Sequence record: PX104380.1
Source of the DNA: a phage
Length of the DNA: 64,000 nt
Strand: one strand, 5' to 3'
A program made the translations under genes and the position numbers. Shown piece after piece: positions 4,344 through 64,000 of the stretch. Positions within the stretch are counted from its first letter, which is position 1, and each line of letters starts with the position of its first letter. The notes beneath the pieces are model-generated. The model saw only the letters and a list, made by a program, of their open reading frames with translations, was not told the origin of the DNA and made no database searches.

Positions 4344-4979
4344 TCACAGTTCAGATGCTACAGTGATTACTGCTTCAATGTTTTCTGCCGAGCGTTTAAT
4401 GTCAAGATAAACATTACCGTTTTTAGCGATTTTACAAGACATTCCGATATCAGTAAATTTCTGAATATGATGTTCCATCATTTTGTATCCAAAAATTCGC
4501 ATATTTCCATTGTTGTTAATTTCAAAATTACGAATTCCGTGAGTGCGTTTTTCTAAAATAGCGAGATAGTTACTGCGATAAGTTTCAACCTTTTTAAGAA
4601 CAAATCCATTTTCATCTAAAAGTTTTAACATGAGGTCTTTATCTTCTTCCATATCAGAAGTAATCTCACGAGCTTTACGAGTTGCTCGTTTTTTCAGTAG
4701 TTCCGGAGCATTTTCCTGTGCGTATAAAGTTGCTGCATTTGAAATAATATCCTGGGCTTCACCTGTAATGATTAATCCATCACCAGATTTCTCCACCAGG
4801 CCTTTTTTAATCAATACCCCAATATTACTATTAACTACTGCGTTACCTAAATCTGGATGCACCCCACGAACTTCTGCGGCTGTAATGAAATCTTTCTTAG
4901 CAATGGTAATTAAAATCGCAGCAGTTTTTTCATTCAGAACATCGTTAGAAGCTTTGATGATGTAAGTTACTTTAGACAT
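4344..4979 (-). CDS. motA: Middle-transcription activator MotA
   Basis: 211 aa, MSKVTYIIKASNDVLNEKTAAILITIAKKDFITAAEVRGVHPDLGNAVVNSNIGVLIKKGLVEKSGDGLIITGEA matches remembered T4 MotA. Confidence 0.95.
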   Translation of the reverse strand: MSKVTYIIKASNDVLNEKTAAILITIAKKDFITAAEVRGVHPDLGNAVVNSNIGVLIKKGLVEKSGDGLIITGEAQDIISNAATLYAQENAPELLKKRATRKAREITSDMEEDKDLMLKLLDENGFVLKKVETYRSNYLAILEKRTHGIRNFEINNNGNMRIFGYKMMEHHIQKFTDIGMSCKIAKNGNVYLDIKRSAENIEAVITVASEL

Positions 4980-5014
4980 TTTCTAATCTCCGTAATTCTG
5001 TATCAGTAGTTGAT

Positions 5015-5075
5015 AGTTGTATAGTACCACAGTATGCTTTGGTTGTAAACCGTTTTATGAAAAAAATTTTAAAAT
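5015..5075 (-). promoter_or_regulatory. Early (sigma70) promoter module upstream of motA
   Basis: - strand GTTTAC (plus 5045-5050), 17/18-bp spacer, extended -10 TGGTACTAT (plus 5021-5029), AT-rich UP region; conserved leader with GGAG before motA ATG. Confidence 0.65.
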
Positions 5076-5100
5076 AAAAAGGGAGAGCCTCGGCTCTCCC
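5061..5100 (-). terminator. Intrinsic terminator downstream of gene 52 and the 49-aa ORF
   Basis: - strand 8-bp GC-rich stem (GGGAGAGC/GCTCTCCC, 4-nt loop) followed by T-run TTTTTATTTTAAAATTTTTT. Confidence 0.7.
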
Positions 5101-5105
5101 TAAAA

Positions 5106-5255
5106 TTACTGCATGACTGTGATAACTGTCATGATAACACGTTGAATTCCGAACGCAAGAAGACCTCCTGCTACGGCTGGAACAACACCTAAACCCGCCA
5201 GTAAAATGCTACCGGATACTAATGCAGCGCTTGTAATACCAATGAATGGACTCAT
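5106..5255 (-). CDS. Small hydrophobic membrane protein (49 aa), translationally coupled to gene 52
   Basis: ATG 5255 overlaps gp52 stop (ATGA); own translation MSPFIGITSAALVSGSILLAGLGVVPAVAGGLLAFGIQRVIMTVITVMQ; below the 60-aa track cutoff. Confidence 0.5.
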   Translation of the reverse strand: MSPFIGITSAALVSGSILLAGLGVVPAVAGGLLAFGIQRVIMTVITVMQ

Positions 5256-6725: not shown

Positions 6726-6883
6726 TAGTAGATAACAACACAAATGTTAAATATGCACACATACCCTGAGCTAAAGCTTGCGAAAACACACTGCTGGCAT
6801 CAATACAGATAGTTAAAACACATGCTACTATCCAACAAATAAATGAAATAACTCCTAATAATTTTGCAATATTCATATTTTCC

Positions 6884-6997
6884 TCACATAAATCCAAAGT
6901 AAACGTTTAATACATCAATCATTAAAACGATTGGGAATATACTCAAAACTACTAGTATTATAACTACATTCCATATAGCTTTAACAATCTTTTTCAT
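6884..6997 (-). CDS. Small membrane peptide (37 aa) behind conserved early leader
   Basis: ATG 6997 preceded by GGAGGAACAGAAA leader; MKKIVKAIWNVVIILVVLSIFPIVLMIDVLNVYFGFM; track ORF is an upstream extension. Confidence 0.45.
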   Translation of the reverse strand: MKKIVKAIWNVVIILVVLSIFPIVLMIDVLNVYFGFM

Positions 6998-7019
6998 TTT
7001 CTGTTCCTCCGTAGTTGAT

Positions 7020-7080
7020 AGGGTAATAGTACCACGGAAGAACAGTCTTGTAAACAGCTTTTTTAAAAATATTCGTAATA
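7020..7080 (-). promoter_or_regulatory. Early promoter module
   Basis: - strand GTTTAC (7050-7055), 17/18-bp spacer, TGGTACTAT (7026-7034), AT-rich upstream. Confidence 0.6.
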
Positions 7081-7240: not shown

Positions 7241-7504
7241 TCATAGCTCAATCTCAGCGATTTTCATTTCATTACTATTAATAGCCGCTTTAAGACTATC
7301 TGAAAGAATTACATTCCAATGGTCATTCATATGACCATTAACTAAGCGTGTAATTTCTTCGGGAGTTGAAAAATAAGGCTGATCAGACTCCCAATGCGAT
7401 AGTCCCAAGCGAGTATAAATCATACCTTCATCATCGCTAGAATATTCAACTGACACAAACTCATCAGTTATTTTATGTTTAGCGTAATAAAATTTAAATT
7501 TCAT
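7241..7504 (-). CDS. Hypothetical protein (87 aa)
   Basis: ORF behind conserved leader CGGAGGAACAGAAAATG and an early promoter. Confidence 0.55.
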   Translation of the reverse strand: MKFKFYYAKHKITDEFVSVEYSSDDEGMIYTRLGLSHWESDQPYFSTPEEITRLVNGHMNDHWNVILSDSLKAAINSNEMKIAEIEL

Positions 7505-11789: not shown

Positions 11790-11845
11790 CAATTAATTAT
11801 ACCACATCCTTGTGGTAAAGTAAACTACTGGCTCATCCATTCTTT
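11790..11845 (-). promoter_or_regulatory. Early promoter for rIIA.1/rIIA
   Basis: - strand GTTTAC (11820-11825), 18-bp spacer, TGGTATAAT (11796-11804); overlaps 3' end of gene 39. Confidence 0.55.
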
Positions 11846-13642
11846 ACGAAGGTCAGCATTATCTCCCATGAGCATTTCAAAAAGCTCATTCCAGTTCTCA
11901 GGAAGTTTAACAACATCATATACCGGATTTTGAATCATCTCACGATATTCAGATTTTTCCAAAGAGCCAAGTCCCTTAATATAACGGATGCTATGTTTAG
12001 GTAGAGCATCTTTAGCACTCTCATATTCAGCGACTGTATAAAACCATTCTTGTTTTTTACCGACCTGAGCGATGATTACAGGAGTTTTGACAAAGCGAAT
12101 TCTTCCTTGTTCAAACAGTTCTGGCCAATTACTAAAAAATCCGAGCAGAGAAGGATAAATGCTTCCTAGACCATCATGGTCAGCATCGGTCATAATAGCA
12201 ATATTATGATAATTCAAGTTTTCAGCTTTTTCACCAAGAACTAATCCAGTGATTGCGCAAATATCAAACAGTTCTTTGTTTTTAAGCATATCAGCATATG
12301 ACATACCCCAACTGTTGAGAACTTTACCGCGCAATGGATAGCCACCATGAAGTTCTTTATCACGAACATCGATTAAATAACCAATTGCAGAATCACCCTC
12401 AGTCAAGAAAAGAGTAGTGTCAGCATCTTTACCACAAAGATTCGCTTTGATATGTTTATGAACCTTAGCTTTAGAAGCCTTTTTAGCTGCTTTAGTTTCT
12501 GCTGCTTTTTCTGCCGCCAATTTACGAGCCAAGGCAGCTTCAATAATCGGCATTAAAATTGCTTCATTATTTAGAATAGCGCGTGAAATCTTTTTAGCAT
12601 CAAGTTGAATATGACTACGAATTTCGCCAAATGGAGAAGTCAAACGCTCTTTAGTTTGAGAATCAAATCGCATGTTTTTCATATCACGGACAAACATAAC
12701 GATAGTCAAACATTCTTTAACGCGTGCTTTAGTCACATCAATTTTGAACTTACGTTTGATTTGTGGAATAAGGTCTTCACAAATATCATCCATAACACAG
12801 TCAATGTGATGGCCACCATTCTTAGTGTGAATGTTATTCACATAAGTTAATTGACGAAAACCATCCGGTGAACGACCAACCGCAATAGAGCAATTTTCTT
12901 GTTCTTGAACGATAGCATGCTCATCATATTGGCGTGCATATTTCTTAAAATTGCCCTGAACCTTTTTACCATTAAAGGTAAATTGAATATCAGGATAAAC
13001 TACTGCAAGTGTCTGGAGACGATCTAGTGTAATGTCAAGATAAACTTGGGACAGCTCATTAGTTTCAAATGACATAAAATCAGGAATGAAAGTAACACGA
13101 GTTCCTTTCCATTTTCCAGGAATAGTTTCCCATGATTTATTTTCCATGCCATTTGAACAACGAACTACAATATTATTTTGACCATCACCAGTTTCACCGA
13201 CAAACATCACAGAAAAAATGTTTGTCAAACTAGAACCAACACCATTCATACCGCCAGTGACGCGTTCTTTATCATCACCGAAGTTACCACCTGCTTTTGG
13301 AATAGTCCAGGCAGCAACAGGACCAGGAATTTCTTCACCGGTAGGTGTTTTGACCATCGCTTGTGGAATACCGCGACCGTTATCTTCAACTGTTACCTGA
13401 TTATTTTTAATGGTAACATTAATTTTATTCGCGAATTTAAACTTAGTACGAATACCTTCATCTACTGAGTTATCGATAATTTCATCAATAAGCTTAACAA
13501 GACCAGGTACATACTGAACACTTTCCCATTTACCAAACAGAAAGCGCTCATGCATTTCATTAGCAGAAGAGCCAATATACATGCCGCTACGCTTTTTGAT
13601 ATGTTCAATATCGCTCAGAATTTTAATTTCATTCTTAATCAT
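11825..13642 (-). CDS. 39: DNA topoisomerase II large subunit gp39 (GyrB-like), uninterrupted
   Basis: 605 aa single ORF with ATPase N-terminus and TOPRIM motifs (TEGDSA, DADHDG); no gene 60 split. Confidence 0.93.
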   Translation of the reverse strand: MIKNEIKILSDIEHIKKRSGMYIGSSANEMHERFLFGKWESVQYVPGLVKLIDEIIDNSVDEGIRTKFKFANKINVTIKNNQVTVEDNGRGIPQAMVKTPTGEEIPGPVAAWTIPKAGGNFGDDKERVTGGMNGVGSSLTNIFSVMFVGETGDGQNNIVVRCSNGMENKSWETIPGKWKGTRVTFIPDFMSFETNELSQVYLDITLDRLQTLAVVYPDIQFTFNGKKVQGNFKKYARQYDEHAIVQEQENCSIAVGRSPDGFRQLTYVNNIHTKNGGHHIDCVMDDICEDLIPQIKRKFKIDVTKARVKECLTIVMFVRDMKNMRFDSQTKERLTSPFGEIRSHIQLDAKKISRAILNNEAILMPIIEAALARKLAAEKAAETKAAKKASKAKVHKHIKANLCGKDADTTLFLTEGDSAIGYLIDVRDKELHGGYPLRGKVLNSWGMSYADMLKNKELFDICAITGLVLGEKAENLNYHNIAIMTDADHDGLGSIYPSLLGFFSNWPELFEQGRIRFVKTPVIIAQVGKKQEWFYTVAEYESAKDALPKHSIRYIKGLGSLEKSEYREMIQNPVYDVVKLPENWNELFEMLMGDNADLRKEWMSQ

Positions 13643-13694: not shown

Positions 13695-13712
13695 AAAGGC
13701 CCGAAGGCCTTT
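13695..13712 (-). other. UUCG hairpin in gene 39 5' region
   Basis: - strand AAAGGCC-TTCG-GGCCTTT; followed by AGCTTTA and TATAAT-like elements. Confidence 0.5.
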
Positions 13713-15432: not shown

Positions 15433-15469
15433 TTTATTCTCCAAGTTGTTTTCTGTATCAGTAGTTGAT

Positions 15470-15530
15470 ATTGATATAGTACCATAATCAACTACTGATG
15501 TATATAGTTTTATGAAAAAATTTTAAACTT
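15470..15530 (-). promoter_or_regulatory. Early-promoter-like module (degenerate -35)
   Basis: TGGTACTAT -10 (15476-15484) but -35 is TATACA; flanked by inverted repeat ATCAGTAGTTGAT/ATCAACTACTGAT. Confidence 0.4.
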
Positions 15531-17152: not shown

Positions 17153-17174
17153 TTTATTATCCTCAGTAGCTATG

Positions 17175-17230
17175 GTGTTATAATACCATAACTAACCGAG
17201 GAAGTAAACAACTTTTTATCGTTTTGTTGG
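17175..17230 (-). promoter_or_regulatory. Early promoter
   Basis: GTTTAC (17204-17209), 18-bp spacer, TGGTATTAT (17180-17188). Confidence 0.55.
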
Positions 17231-21733: not shown

Positions 21734-22353
21734 TCAACTACCTCAATATCATAAACTTTAAATGTTCCAAACGAATCGTGTAATTTTTCTTTTGAAATAG
21801 AAGTTATTTTATACTTTCCAATTGGAATCATCCATTCTTGTTCACGCACGATCATCATTAAGTTATCAGTACGCTCTGAATCTAATCCATCAGTATCTTC
21901 ATATGTATACTTAAACTCAGTATTAGGAGAAGAAAGTATAATATCGCTGATATGGTCAGAGTAATTAAAAGCTTTATCAGTTTTTAAGCGGAATATTATT
22001 TCAGTGAAATATTCAGCATAAGAAAAAGAACACGCTGTGTGTAAACTAGTAGTAAATGAATCTACCCTATTCGTTGAAAACACATCTCCAACCTGTAAAT
22101 TTTCTATTATTTCTTTTGTTGTTTTTGATATACCACGATATAACTGATAAGGCGATTTAGTTAAATGCTTTTTAATGATTTTATTCAACTGTCTGTGAAG
22201 AGCTTCATTCTTTTTGGCTTCCATACATTGCCAAAGAATTGATTGTTCAAAATCAGTAAACTTTTCACAAACCTTTTTATACATATCATATTGAAAATCA
22301 ACGCTTTCAGCTTTTATAGATAACTGTTCAACATCTGCAAGATTAATAATCAT
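21730..22353 (-). CDS. modB: ADP-ribosyltransferase ModB
   Basis: 207 aa; R-S-ExE signature (YRG, STN, REQEWMIP); paralog of ModA. Confidence 0.8.
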   Translation of the reverse strand: MIINLADVEQLSIKAESVDFQYDMYKKVCEKFTDFEQSILWQCMEAKKNEALHRQLNKIIKKHLTKSPYQLYRGISKTTKEIIENLQVGDVFSTNRVDSFTTSLHTACSFSYAEYFTEIIFRLKTDKAFNYSDHISDIILSSPNTEFKYTYEDTDGLDSERTDNLMMIVREQEWMIPIGKYKITSISKEKLHDSFGTFKVYDIEVVE

Positions 22354-22374
22354 GATAGCCTCCGTATACTTCAG

Positions 22375-22430
22375 AAGCTATCATATCATTGTTAGAAAGG
22401 AAAGTAAACAACTTTTTGAATTATTTTGCC
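22375..22430 (-). promoter_or_regulatory. Early promoter for modB-modA
   Basis: GTTTAC (22404-22409), 18-bp spacer, TATGAT -10. Confidence 0.5.
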
Positions 22431-23911: not shown

Positions 23912-24249
23912 TCACAAGATGTAGATGAACAACCAGAATCACAAGAACTTCCACATGAATCGCCCGTCCATACATGAACAGGAACATTAGTGTCATATGA
24001 ATCAGAACTAGACTGTGTATTCTGCGTATTAGATGATGTAGTAGGTGTTGACCAGCGCCAAGGATTTTTATAATATTCTTGGGCTTCTTCATAAGTCATA
24101 GTAACTGCTTCTACTGTTCCATCTCCCATATAAACATATTCAACTACAGTTAAAGGAAGGTAGTCATTTGAAATAGGAACTACACCTTCTCCGGGAGTTG
24201 TAGAGAAAAAATCCGTAAAGAAACTTTTAAACCAATTAAAGATAAACAT
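23908..24249 (-). CDS. Hypothetical protein with Ser/Thr/Cys-rich C-terminal tail
   Basis: 113 aa ending [34 protein letters not shown]. Confidence 0.5.
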
Positions 24250-24461
24250 TACAAAAAGCCTCTCTTAAATTCGATTCTTTGAAATCCACCCCAGTCAGTG
24301 TATCGCATTTCAGCATTGAACTCGACTGAACCATCTGCATGCATCATGAATGAATGCGTGACGATATCACAATCCCAGCTTTTCATACCCCATTTATCAG
24401 AGATAGCTTTATCAAGAACCTTCTGGAGGTCTTCATTTGGTTTAATCCAACGATTTAACAT
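24249..24461 (-). CDS. Hypothetical protein (70 aa)
   Basis: ORF behind early promoter. Confidence 0.5.
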   Translation of the reverse strand: MLNRWIKPNEDLQKVLDKAISDKWGMKSWDCDIVTHSFMMHADGSVEFNAEMRYTDWGGFQRIEFKRGFL

Positions 24462-24481
24462 AGTGCTCTCCTCTATAAGAT

Positions 24482-24531
24482 AATTCTATTATACCATACT
24501 CATTTTGGAAAGTAAACCAGTAAAATGAAAA
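24482..24531 (-). promoter_or_regulatory. Early promoter
   Basis: GTTTAC (24512-24517), 18-bp spacer, TGGTATAAT (24488-24496). Confidence 0.6.
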
Positions 24532-24552
24532 AAGGACTCCCGAAGGAGTCCT
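24521..24552 (-). terminator. Intrinsic terminator after soc
   Basis: - strand AGGACTCC-TTCG-GGAGTCCT (8-bp stem, UUCG loop) followed by TTTTTCATTTT. Confidence 0.75.
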
Positions 24553-24559
24553 TGAATTA

Positions 24560-24796
24560 TTAACCACCTATTTGTGTAGGCGTAAACATTGCAGCATTCT
24601 TAGTTTTCCAAGTTGCTGCATCAGAAACTACAGTAGAATATGCCGCCTTTTCAGAAGGAAAGGTCTGATAATGAGAATCTGCAATACGATGCTCGTTAGA
24701 ATAAATTTCAAACGGAACAGAAACTTCCATACCTTTAACTTCTTTGCCTTCACCTGCTGGATGAGTAAAGGTCTTGATGTTAACGAAACCACCCAT
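24560..24796 (-). CDS. soc: Small outer capsid protein Soc
   Basis: 78 aa; VNIKTF...HYQTFPSEKAAYSTV matches remembered Soc core. Confidence 0.85.
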   Translation of the reverse strand: MGGFVNIKTFTHPAGEGKEVKGMEVSVPFEIYSNEHRIADSHYQTFPSEKAAYSTVVSDAATWKTKNAAMFTPTQIGG

Positions 24797-24827
24797 AATA
24801 AACTCCTTTATTGTTTAATTACAAGTG

Positions 24828-24835
24828 TATTTATA
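24828..24835 (-). promoter_or_regulatory. Late promoter TATAAATA for soc
   Basis: exact T4 late consensus on - strand about 30 nt upstream of soc ATG. Confidence 0.7.
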
Positions 24836-25667
24836 ATCCATTTTCAAATCTCTTTATCATGTTTATATAATTTTCGTCAGGATAACCTAGGCTAACTGCT
24901 AGTTTTCTAAAATTGACATATTTAGGTTTGTTGTTATTAATCCATAATTCTCTAAGCTCTTTTTCATAATTCCATTTAAGTTGATTTCTGCGTGCAGTTT
25001 TGCTTAAAGTTTTTCCTTTAGCTTTTAAAGCTTTTTCAGATGACTGTTTTAATTTTTGAATATTTAAAACTTCTTCTATAGATAAATTATTTTCCTTTGA
25101 ATATCTTATGCAAAAATCTTTTACTGCGGCTATTAGGCAATTTTTGTGAGTACCTAAAATTTCTGGGTTATTTTCTTCAACTAAAATTCCCCAATATCTT
25201 CGGTAGCGAGGCATATCTCTTGAAATCCAGTCATTATACCAAAAATCAAAGTTGGAATACATGAAAGATTTTCTTTTACGAAGAGTATCTTGGTTTATCC
25301 ATTGCTCACGTTTATCAGCCCATAACTTAATAGTAAAGTCTTTTTCTGAGTCAGAAAGCTTCTTAAATTGCGAGCTATTTACTGAGGTCATTCTCTGGAA
25401 TGCATTCAGCAATCCAAATCTTCCAGTTGAACATAAGAGATAGTGAACATATATGTGTTGATATATTGGGAGATATACTCTATTCCAAGGATGTATTTTA
25501 AAATCACTATACTCAGGAAATGCGCATTTAGGAAGTATATGATGGGCTTCTGTTTTAGATTTGATGTGAGTGTTTAACTTATATTTATCTATAATTTTTA
25601 AGTACTCATCTAAAAGTTCCCATTGCGGGAACTTTTCTTTAAGAGCAGATTTGAAATTAATATCCAT
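24831..25667 (-). CDS. HNH-family homing endonuclease-like protein (Mob-like)
   Basis: about 278 aa; HNH-like core EAHHILPKCAFPEY...HPWNRVYLPIYQHIYVH; sits between 56 and soc. Confidence 0.65.
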   Translation of the reverse strand: MDINFKSALKEKFPQWELLDEYLKIIDKYKLNTHIKSKTEAHHILPKCAFPEYSDFKIHPWNRVYLPIYQHIYVHYLLCSTGRFGLLNAFQRMTSVNSSQFKKLSDSEKDFTIKLWADKREQWINQDTLRKRKSFMYSNFDFWYNDWISRDMPRYRRYWGILVEENNPEILGTHKNCLIAAVKDFCIRYSKENNLSIEEVLNIQKLKQSSEKALKAKGKTLSKTARRNQLKWNYEKELRELWINNNKPKYVNFRKLAVSLGYPDENYINMIKRFENGL

Positions 25668-29078: not shown

Positions 29079-29136
29079 AACAATCTCCTCATTTAACCAA
29101 CAAGACTACTATACCATAGTCTTGTCAGCTTGTAAA

Positions 29137-34552: not shown

Positions 34553-34789
34553 TCAAATGCAAGTAGTAATTACTCCAGTAGTGCTTATGCAGGTATTACC
34601 CATTTGCACACCTAAAGATCCATTTGTATTCACATGAAGATTATCATCAATTTTAACTGATATTTTACCATTAGTGTGAATAACGGTGCTAGATTCAATC
34701 ACAGGTTGAGTATCATTTTCAACACTAACAAATGGAACTGCTGCTAATGCAACTAAACAAACTGCTAAGCATCCAATAACAATTTTCAT
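34553..34789 (-). CDS. Small secreted protein (78 aa)
   Basis: ATG 34789 behind GGAGAATAAA leader; N-terminal signal-like segment. Confidence 0.5.
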   Translation of the reverse strand: MKIVIGCLAVCLVALAAVPFVSVENDTQPVIESSTVIHTNGKISVKIDDNLHVNTNGSLGVQMGNTCISTTGVITTCI

Positions 34790-34817: not shown

Positions 34818-34875
34818 AGTTGTATAGTACCATGGAAGAACAGTCTTGTAAACAGTTTTGTGAAAATTTTTTAGG
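34818..34875 (-). promoter_or_regulatory. Early promoter
   Basis: GTTTAC (34848-34853), 18-bp spacer, TGGTACTAT (34824-34832). Confidence 0.6.
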
Positions 34876-34969
34876 GAATTCTAAAGGTCCAGAATCATCT
34901 GTTTTTCATAAGTATAGATTTATATTACTTGTATGAAAAAGGGACCCGGAGGTCCCTAGATTTATTCTA

Positions 34970-37666: not shown

Positions 37667-37703
37667 AGATATTCCTTAGTTTATAGCCCGAGTTATTAGG
37701 CTC
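37667..37703 (-). promoter_or_regulatory. Gene 43 translational operator
   Basis: - strand RNA GAGCCUAAUAACUCGGGCUAUAAACUAAGGAAUAUCUAUG: 5-bp stem, 8-nt loop next to the SD, as in the described T4 gp43 autoregulatory site. Confidence 0.6.
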
Positions 37704-37724
37704 TTGATATATTATACTCCAAAT

Positions 37725-37742
37725 AAGGGGCCGAAGCCCCTT
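37725..37742 (-). other. UUCG hairpin upstream of gene 43
   Basis: - strand AAGGGGC-TTCG-GCCCCTT, 7-bp stem. Confidence 0.55.
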
Positions 37743-39913: not shown

Positions 39914-40600
39914 TTAAAAATCGTGGGTAGAATCAGCTTCAAGAGCTACTACATAATTCGCGTGTTCACCTTCAAATTTAGCAGCACCTTGTTTACCTTT
40001 TGCCCAGAGCAGAAGTTTATAATTTCCTGGTTGCATTTTCATATTTGCCATATTGATAATGAAATTAAATGTATTTTCACCATCATAATCACCAAGAGTC
40101 AAAGAATATTTAACACGTGTCAGAGCAGAATCTTCTACTTTATTAAAACCGTTAATTACGATTTTACCTTCTTTTACCGTGATAGCAATTGTATCAATTT
40201 GCAGACCACGAGATACACGCAACAGTTGTTGAAGGTCTTCAGCTTTAATTTCAGTAACAACAGATGCTACCGGGAATGGAATTGGTTTATTAGGAGCAAC
40301 TACTGTACTCGGATCGGCTGCTGGCCAAAAAATTGTTGAACGGGCATCAGCAATTTTAATATTTCCATCTTCTGACTGGGAAATTTCTGCATCATCATTA
40401 ACTAGAGACAGAATACCGAGAAAACCGTTCAAATCGTAAATTGCTACATCAAAATCAATAGTGTCAGAAATATTTGCTTCCGCATAAGTTGTACCATTAA
40501 CTGCGCGAGTCATAATAAATTGACCGGATTTAAGCATAATACCGGAGTTAATAGTAGCGAAATTTTTCAAAATATTCAGTGTGTCTTTAGATAATTTCAT
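39914..40600 (-). CDS. 45: Sliding clamp gp45
   Basis: 228 aa; [64 protein letters not shown]. Confidence 0.95.
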   Translation of the reverse strand: MKLSKDTLNILKNFATINSGIMLKSGQFIMTRAVNGTTYAEANISDTIDFDVAIYDLNGFLGILSLVNDDAEISQSEDGNIKIADARSTIFWPAADPSTVVAPNKPIPFPVASVVTEIKAEDLQQLLRVSRGLQIDTIAITVKEGKIVINGFNKVEDSALTRVKYSLTLGDYDGENTFNFIINMANMKMQPGNYKLLLWAKGKQGAAKFEGEHANYVVALEADSTHDF

Positions 40601-41484
40601 TTCAATTTCCTATTTACATAATAGTTAGACCAGGACCGTACAGCACCCTGATAAGATTCGTCGTTAAACCCATTAGCTACTGCAATTTTACGAAATTTAT
40701 TATAACTCGGTTTTCCGTAAGCATGCCATAAAGATTTTAATTCATCTTCATGTTCAATCCAAGTTCCTCTAGCTTTAGATTTTCTAAATTTTGATTTGAA
40801 TTCCGGTGAATTATTTCTAACAGTTGCTTGAATTGAAGCTCTCTGTCTTCTTTCAGCATTATTCCATAACTCTTTTTGAGATTTAGAAATTTTTGATTTT
40901 ACACTTTCTGAATTCATTATATCACTAAACTTTTTAGCATAACTGCAATCAAGATATTTCAATTTCATCTTATTTGAAAGTTTAAGCTTTTTCTCATCGG
41001 TCCAGTGATTCTTCATTGAATTAGATATTTTGTATTTTACGTCAGAACTATGTTTGTAACCTTTACGAATACCAACATAATCGGGCGTAATTTCAGATTG
41101 CGAAAGCTTTACAATTTTTCCAGTTAAAACATTTTTATATGTTCCATATCCTTTAGCGCCAATTAAAGTATTTTCATCTGCGTATGCTTTATTAAAATAT
41201 TTTATATTACTTTTTGCTTTAACTTTTAATTGAAAAAATCTTTCCAATTTTCTTGGATCTAATATAGTTTCAGCTAAAATTTTGACGGTATATTTAGTGG
41301 TTTTAATAAGCTCAAAATATTCATCGCTATAACTCGATGACACGCTTCCAGTATAAATCTTTCCAGCTGAATCAATTATATTTGTTCCATCGAAAATTGC
41401 GTCAATTTTCGAACCTATATAATAACATGGAAAAATATTTTTAGCTTCCCGCTCTGGAAAGCTAATAAGATATACTAAATTCAT
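40597..41484 (-). CDS. GIY-YIG-like (Seg-type) homing endonuclease candidate between 45 and rpbA
   Basis: 295 aa; N-terminal VYLISF...YYIGSK resembles GIY-YIG; C-terminal module shared with two other endonuclease-like ORFs. Confidence 0.5.
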
Positions 41485-45406: not shown

Positions 45407-45430
45407 TGTATCAAACCTCCGTATAAAGCT

Positions 45431-45448
45431 AAAGGGCCGAAGCCCTTT
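45431..45448 (-). other. UUCG hairpin downstream of a-gt
   Basis: - strand AAAGGGC-TTCG-GCCCTTT; flank ATAAAGCTAAAGG also present at 13687. Confidence 0.5.
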
Positions 45449-46649
45449 ATTTTGTAATAATGTCAAACTGTTCTTTAAAGCAGAAGCTTGAATCTTGATG
45501 CTGATACAAAAATTCATAAGCTTTTTCGCGTTCGCGGTCATAAAGAGTTCGGTCAGATGACAGTTCTTTAATACGCTCGAATGTTGATTCCATGTCATTT
45601 TCATCAAACCAAACGATACCGCTATCATGAGAAATTAATGGAGTGTTATCAACACGGAATTTTAAATTTTCGCCAGTAGATTTCCAAAATACCGGAATTG
45701 TTCCACATGCACCAAGCTCGAGATGAGTATATTCTAAAGAACGCTGTAGATATTTTTTGTCCAACTTACTCAGCTGATAACCAAAACCGGATTTACTCAT
45801 ACGTTCAAGCATTTCGCTATTTACATAACGGTCAAGAATTTGCGTTGGCAAATTAGGAGCAATTTTAATTTGGTCTACTTGATGAAGACGATAATACTCG
45901 TATGGAATTCCTTTTTCTTTAATAGGAATGAACGCTGGAGAACGTTCCAGACCTTCCATAATAGTACTTAGTCCTGCAGGTTTAAGATGTTTTTCATGAA
46001 AATCAAACATCTGATAAAAACCTTTCCATGTAGTCGTACGACCAATCCAACGGTTGATATTCATGTTAATTTCAGAAACATCTTTCCAGTAGGTTGACCG
46101 AACCTTCGCAATATCCATAGGAGGCTGAAAGTTATATACGGTCGGCGCTTCTTCAATATCATCAAACAGAGAAACAGTTTCTGGATACCATTCTTTCATC
46201 AGAACTTTATTAAAATCACCATTATCAGAATGGCTAAAAATAACATCAGCTCGACGAACAGTTTCTTCTAATCCCAAATTTCGACGCAAAGAAAGAGAAG
46301 AATGGTCGTGTTGATAAACTACAACACGAACAGAAGGTTTAATGTTATCAATAATTTTTTTATAGTTATTAATAGTGTCTTCTTCAACCGAAGTAGCAGG
46401 AACCGAATTGATAATTAGAATATCACAATCATTTACCAGCTTAAGTGTTTTATCGTATTCTTTTGCCAATAAAACCGGAATTGAAAATGATTTATAATCA
46501 TGCGCACAATTACGAGTAAATGATTTATCTTTAGCATAAACCAAAGTTACTTCATGACCATTTTTAATAAACCAATCACGTTGCTCAAGAGAAAATTTAG
46601 TTACACCACAACCTTCAAGACCTCGAGCCATAAAAATACATACTTTCAT
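45447..46649 (-). CDS. a-gt: DNA alpha-glucosyltransferase
   Basis: 400 aa; MKVCIFMARGLEGCGVTKFSLEQRDWFIKNGHEVTLVYAKDKSF matches remembered T4 alpha-gt. Confidence 0.93.
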   Translation of the reverse strand: MKVCIFMARGLEGCGVTKFSLEQRDWFIKNGHEVTLVYAKDKSFTRNCAHDYKSFSIPVLLAKEYDKTLKLVNDCDILIINSVPATSVEEDTINNYKKIIDNIKPSVRVVVYQHDHSSLSLRRNLGLEETVRRADVIFSHSDNGDFNKVLMKEWYPETVSLFDDIEEAPTVYNFQPPMDIAKVRSTYWKDVSEINMNINRWIGRTTTWKGFYQMFDFHEKHLKPAGLSTIMEGLERSPAFIPIKEKGIPYEYYRLHQVDQIKIAPNLPTQILDRYVNSEMLERMSKSGFGYQLSKLDKKYLQRSLEYTHLELGACGTIPVFWKSTGENLKFRVDNTPLISHDSGIVWFDENDMESTFERIKELSSDRTLYDREREKAYEFLYQHQDSSFCFKEQFDIITK

Positions 46650-46697: not shown

Positions 46698-46700
46698 ATA

Positions 46701-46718
46701 TAGGAGCCGAAGCTCCTA
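46701..46718 (-). other. UUCG hairpin
   Basis: - strand TAGGAGC-TTCG-GCTCCTA. Confidence 0.5.
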
Positions 46719-46892
46719 TCCACATAATACATCATACAAAGGCTCATTAGAGCTTCTAAATTTTATGCGCTTATATGTTATAGTTCCTTCTGCTTTAGCT
46801 TTATCATGAGACTCTTTAAAGAGTCTCATCATTTCCTCTTTAGAGGAACGAATTTTATTATAATCTATTTCAGAAGTCTGGGTGTTCATCTT

Positions 46893-49655: not shown

Positions 49656-49712
49656 ATGTTAATAATACCACGGTTTGAACTTGTTGTAAACAACTTTGTG
49701 AAAAATATTTTA
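49656..49712 (-). promoter_or_regulatory. Early promoter
   Basis: GTTTAC (49686-49691), 18-bp spacer, TGGTATTAT (49662-49670). Confidence 0.55.
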
Positions 49713-49789
49713 GGGAATGATAAGAAGGGAACGATAGCTTAGAATGGTAATATACAGAATGTAAGAAAGAAAGGCCCAGAGGGCCCGTC

Positions 49790-50729: not shown

Positions 50730-51200
50730 TTAATCATGTGTCCACACCCCATCGGTATTTGACCAAAGTCGCTGATTATCTGATCCTCGCCACAGCTTTT
50801 TAGTCGGAAGATTTTTCTCATACTTCCCATCAATAATAACATCAACATATTTAAGCATTTCTAGTTGTTTAATATCTTCAAACTTATATCCTGTCCACAA
50901 CCAAATGCTTTTATTGGGATAAAGATTTTTAATAGTTTGAACCACAGAGTGAATCACGTCTCTGTTATCAGGATAAAGAGGGTCACCTCCGGTTATAGTT
51001 AATCCTTCTATATAATCATTATTCAAACATTCAATCAATTGTTCTAGTGTTTCACCAGTGAATGGAATACCATTTCTAGCATTCCATGTTGATTTATTAT
51101 AACACCCTTCGCATTTATGCAAACAACCTGTAACGAAAAGAACGACCCTGCATCCAGGGCCATTCACAAAGCAGCACGGGTATATTCTGTCATAATTCAT
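50730..51200 (-). CDS. nrdG: Anaerobic ribonucleotide reductase activase NrdG (radical SAM)
   Basis: 156 aa from ATG 51200; CxxxCxxC motif CLHKCEGCYNK. Confidence 0.88.
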   Translation of the reverse strand: MNYDRIYPCCFVNGPGCRVVLFVTGCLHKCEGCYNKSTWNARNGIPFTGETLEQLIECLNNDYIEGLTITGGDPLYPDNRDVIHSVVQTIKNLYPNKSIWLWTGYKFEDIKQLEMLKYVDVIIDGKYEKNLPTKKLWRGSDNQRLWSNTDGVWTHD

Positions 51201-52027
51201 AATAATATCCAATTTTTCCAAGCTTCATCAGTAGAATTACAGCGTTTTAGTATAAGATGTCTAGAAACTTTTATGGCATTTGAGCACTTTTTAATTGAAT
51301 CATATTTAATACCGTCAACTGAAACGGTTTTGCTCGTTGGAGAAATTTTTCCATACATTGGATTTTTTGAACCAACTTGAAGTCCTTTTAAAGCTTTTGA
51401 AAGCTTTTGTCTAGATTCCAATGACATGGGAGAATTCTTTTTACCTTCAATAATTCGCTTGCGATGAAGTTCGCGTTCTTCTTCGCTCAAAGAATTGTAA
51501 TATTTTTTAACACCGTTTGATATAGATAATTTATCTTTCTCAGACCGCTCTCCAACTAATTTACTTCTAACATCTTTTCGCTTCATAGCTATGCTTACAG
51601 CTTTATTTAAATTTGCTTGATGCTCTGGCGTACGTTTATATTTCTTTAAAGCACGTGAAATAGCTATTTTAGTTTCTACTGTTTTCTTTTTACCTTTATT
51701 TGCTAAACTATTTTTGTGGCGATGTTCAAGTGTCTGTTCATAAGCAGTTCCACCTTTTCCACCGGGTTTAATATTATATGTATTTTCTTTTAGACAATAC
51801 TCTTCGGTTACAAGTTCAGCTTCTTTATCATACATTTGTTTTTCATTATCAAAAACATGTAAAATTTCTTTATTAAAATTTTTTCTACCATATTTTAATA
51901 AAGCGGCACGAATCAATGTTCCTGATCCCATATAACCGTCATTTATGTTATCGGTGCTATGCGCACCGATATATTCCTTTGAATTAATTATATTTGTTAT
52001 TTTATAAATTATATAATACCTATGCAT
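51197..52027 (-). CDS. GIY-YIG homing endonuclease (I-TevI/Seg-like), free-standing between nrdD and nrdG
   Basis: 276 aa; N-terminal YYIIYKITNIINSKEYIGAHS...YMGSG; basic NUMOD-like repeats; overlaps nrdD stop by 8 nt and nrdG start. Confidence 0.72.
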   Translation of the reverse strand: MHRYYIIYKITNIINSKEYIGAHSTDNINDGYMGSGTLIRAALLKYGRKNFNKEILHVFDNEKQMYDKEAELVTEEYCLKENTYNIKPGGKGGTAYEQTLEHRHKNSLANKGKKKTVETKIAISRALKKYKRTPEHQANLNKAVSIAMKRKDVRSKLVGERSEKDKLSISNGVKKYYNSLSEEERELHRKRIIEGKKNSPMSLESRQKLSKALKGLQVGSKNPMYGKISPTSKTVSVDGIKYDSIKKCSNAIKVSRHLILKRCNSTDEAWKNWILL

Positions 52028-53837
52028 GTTTTACTCGTTTTACCATTTCTTTCATTTTACCTAAATTCCATGGAACAACGCTAGGAGTTCCAAGATATCC
52101 GCATGTTCTTCTTATGGTATTCATCTTTTTAGGATCAGTTTCTCCACAAATAGAACAAACAAATCCGTTTTCAGTAGGAGTCATTTCATGGGTACTTCCA
52201 CATGTAAAACATTTATCTACTGGCATATTAACACCAAAATAATCTAAATGTTGTGCAGCATAATCCCATACGGCCTCAAGACCCTTTAAGTTATTTTTCA
52301 TATCAGGAAGTTCAACATAAGAAATGTGGCCGCCTGTCGCAATGAAATGATATGGCGCTTCACGAGAAATCTTTTCAAACGGAGTAACATTTTCTTCTAC
52401 TGAAACGTGGAAACTGTTAGTGTACCAGCCTTTATCGGTAACATCTTTTACACTTCCATATTTTTCGGTATCAAGTTTACAGAAGCGATAACACAGGTTT
52501 TCAGCAGGAGTAGAATACAAGCTAAAAGCAAATCCGGTTCTTTCTGTCCACTGCTTAAGACGAGCATTCATTTTAGTTAAAATTTCTTGTCCAATATCAC
52601 GACCGACAAGAATATTCAATTCGTGAATACCAATGTATCCTAAGGACACTGAACTTCTACCGTTTTTAAATAACTCAATTATATCATCATCAGGTTTAAG
52701 ACGAACCCCGAATGCACCTTCTTGGTAAAGAATAGGAGCAACAGTCGCTTTAACTCCTTTTAAGGAACTAATTCTACACATCAAAGCTTCAAAACACAGA
52801 TCCATTCGTTCATTAAATAGCTCAACAAATTTCTGCTCATTGAATTGAGTTCCAATATAAGAATCTAATGCGATGCGAGGAAGATTCAATGTTACAACAC
52901 CAAGATTATTACGTCCATCAAGAATTTCATTACCGGTTGAATCTTTCCACACACTCAAGAAACTACGACAACCCATTGGAGAAACAGGAGTAGATGAGCC
53001 GGTGATAGCTTTATTGTTCTTAGCCGAAATGATGTCAGGATACATTCTTTTGCTTGCGCACTCTAGAGCAAGCTGTTTAATATCATAGTTCGGGTCGTCT
53101 TTATAAAGATTAACACCTTCTTCAACGAACATAACAAGTTTAGGGAAAATAGGAGTTATCCCATCACGACCAAGACCTTTAATACGATTTTTCAGAATTG
53201 CTTTCTGAATCATTCGTTCAGTCCAGTCAGTTCCCGTACCAAATGTAATTGTTACAAAAGGCGTTTGTCCGTTTGAACTAAAGAGAGTATTTACTTCATA
53301 TTCATAAGCTTGGAATGCATCGTATACATCTTTTTCTGTTTTAGATTGAGCATAATTCAACGCATCAGCGATTTGCCATTTTTCTGCATCCTCAATATGT
53401 TTTGCATAGGTGCGTTTAACATAAGGAGAAAGTACTTTATCTACATTCGCAAAAGTCGTTCCGCCGTATTGATGGGAAGCAACCTGTGCAGTAATTTGTG
53501 CCATAATTGCAGTAGCAACACCGATTGATTTAGGAGTTTCAATCTGTGCATTACCAAGCTTAAATCCGTTCTCAAGCATTCCTTTTAAATCTACTAAACA
53601 ACAATTAGTAAATGGAAGAGCAGGGGAATAATCAATATCATGGAAATGAATAATTCCGCTTTCATGCGCTTTCATAATAAAAGACGGGACCATATTTTTG
53701 GCAATGTGTTTAGACACAATACCAGCCATAAGGTCCCGTTGAGTTGGAAAAACACGAGAATCTTTATTAGCATTCTCGTTTAAAAGGTCTTTATTAGTTT
53801 TATGAATCAATCCTTCAATTTCTTTTTCAATTGTCAT
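52020..53837 (-). CDS. nrdD: Anaerobic ribonucleotide reductase NrdD, intronless
   Basis: 605 aa contiguous; glycyl-radical region RRTCGYLG and C-terminal Zn ribbon CFTCGS...CSICG. Confidence 0.95.
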   Translation of the reverse strand: MTIEKEIEGLIHKTNKDLLNENANKDSRVFPTQRDLMAGIVSKHIAKNMVPSFIMKAHESGIIHFHDIDYSPALPFTNCCLVDLKGMLENGFKLGNAQIETPKSIGVATAIMAQITAQVASHQYGGTTFANVDKVLSPYVKRTYAKHIEDAEKWQIADALNYAQSKTEKDVYDAFQAYEYEVNTLFSSNGQTPFVTITFGTGTDWTERMIQKAILKNRIKGLGRDGITPIFPKLVMFVEEGVNLYKDDPNYDIKQLALECASKRMYPDIISAKNNKAITGSSTPVSPMGCRSFLSVWKDSTGNEILDGRNNLGVVTLNLPRIALDSYIGTQFNEQKFVELFNERMDLCFEALMCRISSLKGVKATVAPILYQEGAFGVRLKPDDDIIELFKNGRSSVSLGYIGIHELNILVGRDIGQEILTKMNARLKQWTERTGFAFSLYSTPAENLCYRFCKLDTEKYGSVKDVTDKGWYTNSFHVSVEENVTPFEKISREAPYHFIATGGHISYVELPDMKNNLKGLEAVWDYAAQHLDYFGVNMPVDKCFTCGSTHEMTPTENGFVCSICGETDPKKMNTIRRTCGYLGTPSVVPWNLGKMKEMVKRVKHA

Positions 53838-58240: not shown

Positions 58241-58297
58241 AAGAACATTATACCACATCCTTGTGGCAAAGTAAACTAGTTCAGTGCATTTAGTGCG
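58241..58297 (-). promoter_or_regulatory. Early promoter
   Basis: GTTTAC (58271-58276), 18-bp spacer, TGGTATAAT (58247-58255). Confidence 0.55.
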
Positions 58298-60647: not shown

Positions 60648-61175
60648 TTATGCGAGTACCGTCTTTAACCGTTCTTCAAACTTCCGAAGAGTATTCTGGC
60701 GTTCAGCTCTTTGCTTTTTGTAAGTTTCAATACGCTCTGAAATGAGAGTGTATCGTTCATTTACTGATTCTTTCATAAAATCAGGAATTTCACGAGAAGC
60801 TTTAATCTCATCAAATTTATCAATAACAGCTTGCTCTTCAGCAATTAAGTTATCATACATCAAAATATCTTTCTTGATGAACTCAATATCTTCTTGAGTT
60901 ACACGAGATAACTTAGATGCTTTATCCTTTTTGTACTGTTCGTTAGTATCACGAGACCAGTGTAATGTACGATTTTTATTCGTATTTTTGTAAATTTCTA
61001 CGATACCAATCTCATCAATAATAACGATCCAATTCCAACGGGATTTGTAAATTTGTCCTCCATCAACTGTGATTTCACCTCCGATTGAGATGTCATTAAA
61101 GAACTTGCTTTGTGCTTCAGATTTAAATTTACCATCGTTGTAATTTACCAAGTTGAAAATATCTTTAGCGTTCAT
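60648..61175 (-). CDS. Hypothetical protein (175 aa)
   Basis: ORF behind conserved leader and early promoter. Confidence 0.55.
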   Translation of the reverse strand: MNAKDIFNLVNYNDGKFKSEAQSKFFNDISIGGEITVDGGQIYKSRWNWIVIIDEIGIVEIYKNTNKNRTLHWSRDTNEQYKKDKASKLSRVTQEDIEFIKKDILMYDNLIAEEQAVIDKFDEIKASREIPDFMKESVNERYTLISERIETYKKQRAERQNTLRKFEERLKTVLA

Positions 61176-61197
61176 TTTCTGTTCCTCTGTAGTTGAT

Positions 61198-61255
61198 AGT
61201 TGTATAGTACCACAGAGGAACAGTCTTGTAAACCACTAAAAGAAACTTCTTTCAC
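61198..61255 (-). promoter_or_regulatory. Early promoter module
   Basis: GTTTAC (61228-61233), 18-bp spacer, TGGTACTAT (61204-61212); 12-bp inverted repeat CTGTTCCTCTGT/ACAGAGGAACAG flanks the -10. Confidence 0.6.
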
Positions 61256-61620: not shown

Positions 61621-62340
61621 TTAGGATTCTTCTAAATGTCTTTTCTGAAAAGTTGATACCATACTACGATACGGTTCATTTGGATACCCGTGTTTTATAG
61701 CTTCCTTTGTAAATTTTCTCCATCCATATTTAGTTTCTTTCCAAAGCTCGAATAATTCATCTTCATACTGCCATATAGTTAAATGAGAACGCTTTGCAGC
61801 TTTAATTCCATTAATATGCTTTTCTTTTACTACAGGATTGCTTAGTTTCTTTTTAATAATATTACTAACTTTTCTAACAAAAACTGGGTCCTTATATCGT
61901 TGCGAAGTTTTTATTGAAGTGTTTAATTTAGCTTCCGGTGTGGATGTGACCTCTTTCATCTTTTTCTTCATATGCTGTATATGATTAGGATTTTTCCATA
62001 AATTTATAGAATGCTTTTTGCATTTTATCCTAGTTTCATCTGCAACCTTTCCTCCTTCACCTCCGTATGACAGGTTAACACAGTTTTTTCCATATTTCAA
62101 TTTACCTGCCATGATATATAATATTTCAGCTTGTACCATTTTATCATAATTATCAAAAACTTCTAAAACCGTTTTTGATAATATGTGGTCATTTGACACT
62201 TTTACACGTTCTATATAATTTCCACTACCAACATACGAATCATTGATGTTATTAGTTATATGTCGACCATAATAGTATTTCTTAATACCTGTCTTTAAAT
62301 TTAATATTTCAGTTTTATAGATAGTAAAATATTTTTTCAT
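61621..62340 (-). CDS. GIY-YIG (Seg-like) homing endonuclease candidate
   Basis: 239 aa; N-terminal YFTIYKTEILN...YYYGRH...YVGSG; C-terminal module shared with ORFs at 24831 and 40597. Confidence 0.6.
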   Translation of the reverse strand: MKKYFTIYKTEILNLKTGIKKYYYGRHITNNINDSYVGSGNYIERVKVSNDHILSKTVLEVFDNYDKMVQAEILYIMAGKLKYGKNCVNLSYGGEGGKVADETRIKCKKHSINLWKNPNHIQHMKKKMKEVTSTPEAKLNTSIKTSQRYKDPVFVRKVSNIIKKKLSNPVVKEKHINGIKAAKRSHLTIWQYEDELFELWKETKYGWRKFTKEAIKHGYPNEPYRSMVSTFQKRHLEES

Positions 62341-63305
62341 TTTAATAATACCGTTTCAGCAATTTCTTCCCAATGATTTTTGTCGGTCATAATAAAGTCA
62401 GCAAGATAAAGAGCAGTACGCAGTGAAACATTGCGTAAACGATTAACATTGACTTTCATCCATGATAATGCTTTATAAGTTTCTTCATCAGAAAGACCGC
62501 GCTTTTGCATCATGTCAGTTGAAAGAATAACATCTTCAACCCTGACCATAATTTCTTCATTAGTGTGAACACCCAAATCCAAATAAACTGAGCGGGACAC
62601 TAATGCTTGTAAATGTGGAGCAAGTTTAGTACCACGGTCTAATTCGCGGTCAATGTCAACGTTTGTGATAAAAACAATCGTTCCTTTAAATTCAAACTCA
62701 CGCTCAATGCCTTTTTCTTCTAAGTAAGAAGATGCGGTGCTCCAGCAGACTTTACGGGTCTCTCCAGTGTCCAGAGCAGCTTTCAGAAGATTAAGAATGT
62801 CCATATCAGAGAAAACATCCACATCATCAATCAAAAGGACAGAATTCTCTTCACGATTATTCCAAAGCTGTTCATAAAGACCGATACCAGAGATTTTACC
62901 ATTAATGCTTTTATACTCAATGTATCCAATATCATTTGCTTTATTTAAAGCTTTATCTAAAGAATACGTTTTACCAATACCCGCCGCGCCAGAGATAATT
63001 AATGAACGAATGTTTCCGTTAATAATACCATTCGTCATCATTCCCATAACATTAAATCTTTTATTAATGCGGGTTTTCATATCTTCATACGATTCTTTAA
63101 CTTCTTCAACTTTTACACCATCATATGAAATGTCTGATTTGTAAACCCAAACACCGCGACGTTTACCGTCAATTTCAACAAAAACTTTACCATCTCCTTG
63201 TGCATCTACTGGAGCATTATCAGGGAACCACTCACCTAAGAGTTCAAAGGTTCCAGAGATTTCTTTGCCAAAGTAAATACCCTTATTGATAGTTACAGTT
63301 TTCAT
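62337..63305 (-). CDS. P-loop NTPase (AAA-like)
   Basis: 322 aa from ATG 63305; Walker A GAAGIGKT, Walker B LLIDDVD; track extension reads through a terminator hairpin. Confidence 0.55.
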   Translation of the reverse strand: MKTVTINKGIYFGKEISGTFELLGEWFPDNAPVDAQGDGKVFVEIDGKRRGVWVYKSDISYDGVKVEEVKESYEDMKTRINKRFNVMGMMTNGIINGNIRSLIISGAAGIGKTYSLDKALNKANDIGYIEYKSINGKISGIGLYEQLWNNREENSVLLIDDVDVFSDMDILNLLKAALDTGETRKVCWSTASSYLEEKGIEREFEFKGTIVFITNVDIDRELDRGTKLAPHLQALVSRSVYLDLGVHTNEEIMVRVEDVILSTDMMQKRGLSDEETYKALSWMKVNVNRLRNVSLRTALYLADFIMTDKNHWEEIAETVLLK

Positions 63306-63333: not shown

Positions 63334-63390
63334 AGTTGTATAGTACCATAAAGCTTTATGCTTGTAAACAACTTTGTGAAAAATTTTTGA
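63334..63390 (-). promoter_or_regulatory. Early promoter module
   Basis: GTTTAC (63364-63369), 18-bp spacer, TGGTACTAT (63340-63348). Confidence 0.6.
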
Positions 63391-63419
63391 AATAAAAAAA
63401 GGGAGCCCGAAGGCTCCCT
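63391..63419 (-). terminator. Intrinsic terminator
   Basis: - strand GGGAGCC-TTCG-GGCTCCC followed by TTTTTTTATTT. Confidence 0.75.
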
Positions 63420-63999: not shown

Positions 64000-64000
64000 C

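Follow-up and report, generated by a model that had tools for sequence, protein, structure and literature searches.

At three places in the window, the 64,000-nt stretch of phage DNA analysed here, one gene gives way to the next across a compact regulatory unit that is very probably a junction of the PeSL (promoter-early stem-loop) type, made up of a rho-independent terminator, a gap of 14–30 nt and a T4-type early promoter; the unit as a whole may also serve as a homology patch. The three sites are located between motA.1 and motA (J1), between soc and mrh.2 (J2) and between nrdC.11 and nrdC.10 (J3). An earlier note on this DNA had described a hairpin with a T-run upstream of an early promoter at each of them, which we could confirm; its coordinates are accurate and refer to minus-strand features, a point left unstated in the note. 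Judged by their sequence, the elements are PeSLs of the T4/PST subtype and thus of a kind that is already known.

The window belongs to a mosaic Tequatrovirus (T4/T2/T6-like) genome with the early genes on the minus strand. BLAST against the phage sequences in GenBank yielded 94–98% identity in many pieces and a full-length match to no single record. The gene order is colinear with T4 from the tail-fibre/asiA/motA region via rIIB/rIIA to nrdC.11, interrupted by some 25 indels or replacements. Minus-strand ORFs make up 107 of the 117 crude calls and almost all genes beyond about 2.25 kb have this orientation, therefore the junctions are described here as they appear on the minus strand, to which all features given below belong. 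For comparison we used a panel of seven genomes, consisting of six unannotated Tequatrovirus genomes and T4, and for the deep conservation of the motA junction 13 loci obtained with a MotA query against IMG/VR. Rfam gave no match in the whole window at the gathering threshold, the RefSeq record of T4 is annotated without promoter and terminator features, and the literature searched contained no mapping of transcript 3’ or 5’ ends for T4 or this phage.

All three junctions show the same order of elements, namely stop codon, GC-rich hairpin, T-run, A/T-rich block, promoter, Shine-Dalgarno sequence and ATG. The upstream stop codon lies 1–6 nt ahead of the hairpin, the stems comprise 8–9 bp with 5–6 G-C pairs and carry tetraloops, and the sequence geometry is that of an intrinsic terminator. 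From the end of the hairpin to the G of GTTTAC there are 29 nt in J1, 14 nt in J2 and 30 nt in J3. The promoter follows the pattern GTTTAC(A/T)-N17-TA(C/T)(T/A)AT, with a spacer of 17 nt and a TGG (TGn) just before the -10 hexamer, and leads into a leader of about 30–40 nt in which GGAG or GAGGAG is found 6–8 nt ahead of the downstream ATG. Early promoters of T4 use -35, TGn, -10 and UP elements (PMC2988021), and this feature set is complete at J1, J2 and J3 (-35 GTTTAC, TGn, -10 TAnnnT and a UP-like A/T block). The counterparts in the intergenic regions of T4 have the same architecture at 95–98% identity.

The UP region deserves separate mention, as the earlier note had proposed that the T-run of the terminator doubles as the UP element. 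Counting from a transcription start assumed 7 nt past the -10 hexamer, this applies to J2, where the T-run spans -50 to -37, but not to J1 and J3, where it is situated at about -66 to -56 and meets the canonical UP range only at its distal end. When the 19 promoters of this type in the window were stacked on their -35 elements, a conserved AAAAATTTTTCACAAA-nn block was found to abut GTTTAC on its upstream side, also in those promoters that lack a hairpin. In J1 and J3 the T-run lies upstream of this AAAAATTTTTCACAAA block, and the 24 nt preceding the -35 element have an A+T content of 83–88%; at J2 the AAAAATTTTTCACAAA block is missing and its position is filled by the T-run.

J1 separates the 49-aa gene motA.1 (5106–5255), assigned from an ORF call and T4 colinearity, from motA (4344–4979, ATG at 4979), assigned from the MotA annotation in relatives; gene 52 is located further upstream of motA.1. 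The motA.1 region is colinear at 96.9% with T4 160197–165508, where motA.1 is annotated. The terminator hairpin AGGGAGAGC-CGAG-GCTCTCCCT (5080–5101), recognised by folding and from relatives, is followed by a T-run at about 5080–5071, an A/T-rich UP-like block at 5070–5051 and the early promoter (5021–5050), with GTTTACA at 5050–5044 and TACTAT at 5026–5021, which belongs to repeat family D1 and is identical in T4. The Shine-Dalgarno sequence GGAG of motA is found at 4991–4988, and the protein starts with MSKVTYIIKASN. Among relatives, the J1 hairpin varies only in its loop and in how long the T-run is, the loops being CGAG, CUCG or CUUG and not C(UUCG)G. The reading of a terminator followed by an early promoter, already put forward in the earlier note, is supported not only by the sequence anatomy and by T4 orthology but also by independent annotations: in the record of phage DalCa a rho-independent terminator is annotated at the J1 hairpin, and in record X75802 a sister copy of the promoter carries a promoter annotation that includes -35 and -10 signals. 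A candidate MotA box inside the spacer of the DalCa-type motA promoter was rejected, as it leaves only 7 nt to the -10 hexamer. Some of the loop variants pair up as exact reverse complements, CGAG with CTCG in the J1 hairpin and TTCG with CGAA in that of J2.

Upstream of J2 lies the soc cassette (24560–24836), which starts with the late-promoter motif TATAAATA at 24836–24829 and contains the soc coding sequence (24802/24796–24560, stop codon 24562–24560), whose product matches the Pfam family Soc (PF16855, E = 1.1e-19). The terminator hairpin AAGGACTCC-TTCG-GGAGTCCTT (24532–24553) has a C(UUCG)G loop and is directly followed by the T-run (24531–24518) and the promoter with GTTTACT at 24517–24511 and TATAAT at 24493–24488 (together 24488–24531); the downstream gene is a homologue of mrh.2 (24249–24461, ATG at 24461). 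In ES26 and LF73P1 the stem carries a compensatory change from C-G to A-U, and in CJY920 the loop is inverted to CGAA. Taken by its signals, the combination of late promoter, soc and putative terminator is a self-contained late cassette within the early region, and alignments to relatives break at 24835–24845.

At J3 the upstream gene is nrdC.11, of which the window contains the 3’ part (63421–64000, stop codon 63423–63421), the gene extending past the window end. The terminator hairpin AGGGAGCC-TTCG-GGCTCCCT (63400–63419), again with a C(UUCG)G loop, is identical in T4, T2 and ECML-134. It is followed by the T-run (63399–63389), the UP-like block and a promoter of family D1 with GTTTACA at 63369–63363 and TACTAT at 63345–63340 (together 63340–63399). 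The downstream gene nrdC.10 (62337–63305, ATG at 63305) gave only weak Pfam matches to AAA/STAND NTPases, all of them under the curated cut-offs.

The simplest objection is that such arrangements are chance consensus matches in A/T-rich DNA without any function. A generic sigma-70 scan could be cited in its favour, with 70 promoter-like sites in the window compared to 79.6 expected from shuffles. As a scan without discriminating power is uninformative, we used the T4-specific pattern together with a dedicated hairpin scan instead. The pattern GTTTACN-N17-TAnnnT has 19 matches on the minus strand and none on the plus strand, against a mean of 0.29 in 200 dinucleotide shuffles, and the combination of this pattern with a terminator at most 35 nt upstream occurs three times in the window and in none of 200 shuffles. 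Folding energies of the hairpins are -18.5 (J1), -15.1 (J2) and -17.5 kcal/mol (J3), with z-scores of -4.3, -4.2 and -3.8, and none of 200 shuffles folded as well. The units are moreover repeated in the window: J1 and J3 are among the eight copies of a 77-nt repeat family (D1), and J2 groups with a second family (D6). Conservation in T4 extends to distant relatives, since at two far more diverged motA loci (L018 and L019, MotA 51% identical) the order of terminator and promoter is kept, although the hairpin sequence is another one, GGGAGC-TTCG-GCTCCC, followed by a T-run. Together with the compensatory change in the stem of J2 and the precise placement of each of the three sites between stop codon and SD-ATG, this leaves chance with practically no probability, and we regard it as refuted by the conservation at distant loci, the shuffle test and the compensatory change. 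The comparisons, i.e. the distant motA loci, the compensatory change in J2 and the variation of loop and T-run in J1, are supporting evidence that function and not inheritance alone maintains the putative elements.

A second question is whether the hairpins terminate transcription. They could instead act mainly as stabilisers of RNA 3’ ends or as processing barriers, with most polymerases reading through and the downstream promoter adding further transcripts. In line with this, two of the three hairpins have C(UUCG)G loops, a motif that is not tied to termination: the window contains ten such hairpins (J2, J3 and eight others), most of them with poor T-runs. Even the stem-loops of PeSLs have been called 'terminator/attenuator' (PMC2839356). 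Against it, the best U-tracts among the 33 stable minus-strand hairpins are those of J1, J2 and J3 (7–8 T in 9 positions), and they directly abut the 8–9-bp GC-rich stems in the canonical geometry of intrinsic terminators. In addition, the stem-loop of PeSL211/210 from RB49/phi1 reduced expression of a lacZ reporter about as much as rrnB T1 (PMC2839356). We therefore consider predominant read-through to be quite improbable, bearing in mind that the roles of stabiliser and terminator are not mutually exclusive, and keep to a terminator as the first part of the junctions. A point against our reading of the junctions is that hairpins are about equally common in intergenic gaps that lack early promoters, and there middle promoters often come next. 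Several C(UUCG)G hairpins directly precede a MotA box plus -10 hexamer and resemble the 'PmSL' elements of phage nt-1. Hyperstable C(UUCG)G tetraloop hairpins are said to have been first noted in T4 intercistronic regions, by Tuerk et al. in 1988; they represent a structural motif, the loop of which J2 and J3 share, and not a functional class.

With terminator and promoter in this order, the hairpin would end the upstream transcription unit and the early promoter, recognised by the sigma-70 RNA polymerase of the host immediately after infection, would restart transcription for the next gene. The terminator would thereby shield the gene that follows from transcription belonging to another temporal class. 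At J1, middle-mode transcripts of gene 52/motA.1 would be kept out of the immediate-early gene motA, and at J2 late soc transcripts would be kept out of the early gene mrh.2. A unit of about 100–135 nt may at the same time act as a homology patch ('linker'), because copies of it recur around the genome and its sequence is shared from phage to phage. At such a unit the phage recombination system could insert, delete or exchange the flanking genes, each of which would bring along its own expression signals.

The earlier note had also suggested that these junctions mark the boundaries of exchanged modules, and comparison with relatives bears this out, supporting the view that, as far as alignments can tell, all three sit at points of gene insertion or exchange. 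At J1 an extra gene of about 0.3 kb is present between motA.1 and motA in DalCa, LF73P1, ES26 and HEMP5. An insertion at this site occurs in three of the seven panel genomes, with an alignment overlap of 23 nt at the -10/5’UTR region, and in an evenly spaced sample of the matches 14 of 32 near-full-length records align in two pieces with extra DNA. The insert in DalCa is preceded by a full hairpin-promoter unit and followed by a promoter-only unit, and the leader sequence ctatcaaataaatgaactgaaac is duplicated with one copy on either side of the extra gene.

J3 offers a similar picture. In T2 a modA-like ADP-ribosyltransferase gene is inserted between nrdC.11 and nrdC.10 with two complete hairpin-plus-promoter units around it, which have about 35 nt of T-run/UP/-35 sequence in common, and the J3 of the window and T4 looks like a recombinant of the two, in which the hairpin comes from the T2-type upstream unit and the promoter from the downstream one. 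ECML-134 carries a DUF4031 gene and another ORF at this place, with a complete unit upstream and only a promoter downstream, and insertions are present in NIC06P2 and CJY920 as well. About 14 of 43 sampled records (evenly spaced sample) align across the locus in two or three pieces, with about 260, 430–480, 620 or 1100 bases of extra DNA, four of these records having been inspected. What sets the events at J1 and J3 apart is that the inserts are bounded by duplicated copies of the regulatory unit, with the junctions inside the unit and 23–35 nt of shared sequence.

No indels were found at J2 in the seven-genome panel; here it is the flanking alleles that vary. A five-way alignment revealed a nearly invariant island of about 135 nt (24432–24566), which begins at the stop codon of soc, takes in hairpin, promoter and leader and ends at the tenth codon of mrh.2, so that the first 30 nt or so of the mrh.2 homologue are included. 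It is flanked by two soc alleles (about 96% and about 70% identical to the window) on one side and by two divergent mrh.2 alleles on the other, and all four combinations occur among seven genomes. For many phages in GenBank, alignments stop at window position 24566–24570 or start at 24435.

These observations have to be weighed against the possibility that the adjacency is a by-product of genome compaction, indels being tolerated at any gene boundary and homology of the element being irrelevant. In a compact one-directional array any terminator needs a promoter after it, therefore adjacency alone is expected. The breakpoint statistics also fit this explanation. Of 61 breakpoint sites in the seven-genome panel, nine fall into promoter/PeSL regions, which constitute 4.6% of the window, an enrichment under a uniform model (binomial p = 0.0017). 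However, gene boundaries of any kind hold 38 of 59 breakpoint sites, and with boundaries defined by promoter-anchored start codons, those bearing a promoter were hit in 9 of 18 cases and the others in 33 of 85 (Fisher p = 0.43). Three of the five terminator-plus-promoter junctions have a breakpoint in this panel. As the enrichment holds only versus the uniform model, a special recombinogenic role is not demonstrated. Many indels furthermore go along with large extra ORFs that are absent from relatives. On the other hand, compaction does not readily account for the duplicated promoter or hairpin-promoter units around the inserts at J1 and J3 with their 23–35 nt of common sequence, for the sharply bounded island between divergent alleles at J2, or for the promoter at 34853, which is a chimera of two family members. 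For RB49/phi1, mini-circles between neighbouring PeSLs have been detected experimentally (PMC2839356). Taken together, we find it unlikely that compaction is the whole explanation, and a homology patch remains part of our preferred reading of the junctions.

In proposing terminator-promoter units as module boundaries, the earlier note had independently re-derived the published PeSL model (PMC2839356, PMC4122927). PeSLs were defined in RB49/phi1 by Arbiol et al. 2010, who demonstrated terminator and promoter activity in reporter assays and put forward a model in which PeSLs mediate the shuffling of modules (PMC2839356). In the T4/PST pair, to which Comeau et al. 2014 carried the concept over, the stem-loop is found just ahead of the promoter and the consensus reads TTTACW-N17-TAYWAT; our three sites are not named in the text of that paper (PMC4122927). 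The promoters of J1 (TTTACA-17-TACTAT), J2 (TTTACT-17-TATAAT) and J3 (TTTACA-17-TACTAT) all conform to this consensus. The likeness extends to the same parts in the same order, to the repetition of a unit of about 100 nt around the genome and to the proximity of indels or replacements between close relatives. The one difference, nothing essential, is that J1, J2 and J3 adjoin named genes (motA, soc, nrdC.10/.11) instead of ORFans. Promoter and terminator activity and mini-circles are experimental results from RB49/phi1 only, whereas J1, J2 and J3 are known from their sequence, from which we infer efficient termination, promoter activity and homology-driven recombination within the element.

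Other known systems resemble the junctions in part. Lambdoid morons are likewise single genes with their own promoter and terminator inserted between two genes, and moron-like in this sense are the modA-like insert of T2 and the soc cassette with its late promoter and terminator. Morons are described as having no flanking conserved repeats and are thought to arrive by illegitimate recombination (Hendrix et al. 2000, as discussed in PMC2839356), whereas at the junctions presented here it is the regulatory unit that provides the repeated homology. The conserved J2 island of about 135 nt between interchangeable alleles recalls the linkers of Botstein and Campbell; that concept is generic, while the linker described here has a defined make-up of terminator and promoter. 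The integron gene cassette, which was raised by the PeSL authors too (PMC2839356), is an analogy only; the elements are without attC-like architecture. No new question is opened by our findings, since the papers of 2010 and 2014 already contain the element, the T4-type consensus and the module-shuffling model. The junctions illustrate how neighbouring genes in a densely packed phage genome may follow separate timing programmes and by which route new genes could be dropped between old ones with working expression signals. They are of use for annotating and engineering T4-like genomes, with J1 and J3 as naturally tolerated insertion sites.

Two looser junctions of the same kind, missing from the earlier note, bring the number of early promoters with an upstream terminator hairpin to five (J1, J2, J3, 34853 and 49691). 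The first (34824–34957) is located between gene 43 and the next ORF, with the hairpin at 34957–34940, 86 nt before the promoter at 34853–34824. The ORF at 34553–34789 is absent from T4 and ESh34, and a breakpoint was found at 34775. In the second (49662–49786) the hairpin (49786–49772) lies 80 nt before the promoter (49691–49662).

Six early promoters without an upstream terminator (7055, 15505, 17209, 22409, 29137 and 61233) have a strong inverted repeat across the -10 region. These repeats have folding energies of -18 to -24.5 kcal/mol (z = -3.5 to -6.6), and in four of them the spacer of the promoter is paired with the Shine-Dalgarno sequence or AUG of the following gene. Terminator class (five) and spanning class (six) do not overlap among the 19 promoters, which is not significant (hypergeometric p ~0.11). 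It is conceivable, if doubtful, that early promoters are insulated in two alternative ways, either by an upstream terminator or by a -10-spanning repeat that blocks translation of read-through RNA. Read-through RNA would be untranslatable, while RNA initiated at the promoter would lack the 5’ arm of the repeat and could be translated. The same principle is documented for the T4 late-promoter genes e, soc, 49 and I-TevI (PMC3014915). The PeSL papers treat all stem-loops as terminators/attenuators, and spanning repeats such as those found here would complement the terminator-type PeSLs.

Strong inverted repeats lie across the -10 hexamer in six early promoters on the minus strand that have no upstream terminator, each promoter being named here by its position in the window. 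The repeats are located at 6996-7046 (promoter 7055), 15456-15500 (15505), 17158-17203 (17209), 22350-22386 (22409), 29094-29131 (29137) and 61174-61224 (61233), with folding energies of -18 to -24.5 kcal/mol and z = -3.5 to -6.6. Where relatives differ in sequence the pairing is preserved, mainly by exchanges between G-U and G-C pairs. The SD of the next gene lies within the 3' arm in 7055, 17209 and 61233, as do both its SD and AUG in 22409, so that at these four promoters the ribosome site would be masked in read-through RNA and free in promoter-initiated RNA. Folding revealed no -10-spanning structure at the three terminator hairpin-early promoter junctions of the published promoter-early stem-loop (PeSL) kind, with z = +1.0 at J1 (motA.1/motA), -1.2 at J2 (soc/mrh.2) and +1.1 at J3 (nrdC.11/nrdC.10).

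The hairpin loops of two of these junctions vary among relatives. At J1 the loop (5089-5092) reads CGAG in the window and T4 versus CTCG in ESh34, LF73P1 and DalCa, and at J2 (24541-24544) it reads TTCG versus CGAA in CJY920. At both sites the variants are exact reverse complements of one another, which suggests that the loop was inverted and not point-mutated, the mechanism being either template switching or the processing of a cruciform. Promoter 34853 (34824-34853) has the spacer of the 7055 type, agactgttcttcc.tgg, and is followed by a leader up to 34789 and an SD of the J3 type, caactaatacagatttggagaataaaATG; the promoter is a chimera, with a composition consistent with recombination within the element. 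It drives an ORF of 78 aa (34553-34789) that is missing in T4 and ESh34. Between the two early-promoter repeat copies 7055 and 7562 there is an ORF of 87 aa (7241-7504, no Pfam match), which is missing in T4 and replaced in ESh34, a pattern that marks it as a cassette with promoter-only units at its bounds. Two further early-type promoters, located 46 kb apart at 11796-11827 and 58247-58278, have a stretch of 32 nt in common with 97% identity (GTTTACTTT.CCACAAGGATGTGGTATAAT). Both carry the small palindrome CCACA-AGGA-TGTGG in the spacer and have no A/T-rich upstream region.

Many of the big indels between the window and the seven comparison genomes are explained by four large extra ORFs at 24831-25667 (278 aa, no Pfam match), 40597-41484 (295 aa), 51197-52027 (276 aa) and 61621-62340 (239 aa). 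They are missing in T4 and several other genomes of the panel; the matching positions in T4 are occupied by segF and mobC-type genes or are empty. About 1.1 kb carried by all seven comparison genomes is missing from the window at 6872-6887, where the flanks of the junction show a 16-nt overlap; the T4 counterpart is 165508-166624, the stp/ndd/ndd.1 region. The topoisomerase large subunit is encoded by a single ORF of 605 aa (11825-13642) and does not show the gene 60/mobA split of T4, which has an additional 1117 nt at window position 12160-12225. Likewise, nrdD has no T4 intron carrying I-TevII (53299-53302), T4 being longer by 1035 nt at 53300. No Rfam match was found in the window, consistent with an nrdD lacking this intron and an undivided topoisomerase gene.

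Hairpins are also combined with middle promoters. At three minus-strand sites, upstream of gene 39 (13695-13712), of an ORF near gene 47 (45430-45449) and of a-gt (46700-46719), a C(UUCG)G hairpin is directly followed by a MotA-box-like GCTTTA and, after 11-12 nt, by a -10 hexamer. These composites resemble the published 'PmSL' elements of vibriophage nt-1. Upstream of gene 43 (37667-37742, minus strand) a C(UUCG)G hairpin is followed 8 nt on by TATAAT and then, just before the SD, by the hairpin GAGCCUAAUAACUCGGGCU, known as the translational operator of gp43 that the original SELEX experiment employed.
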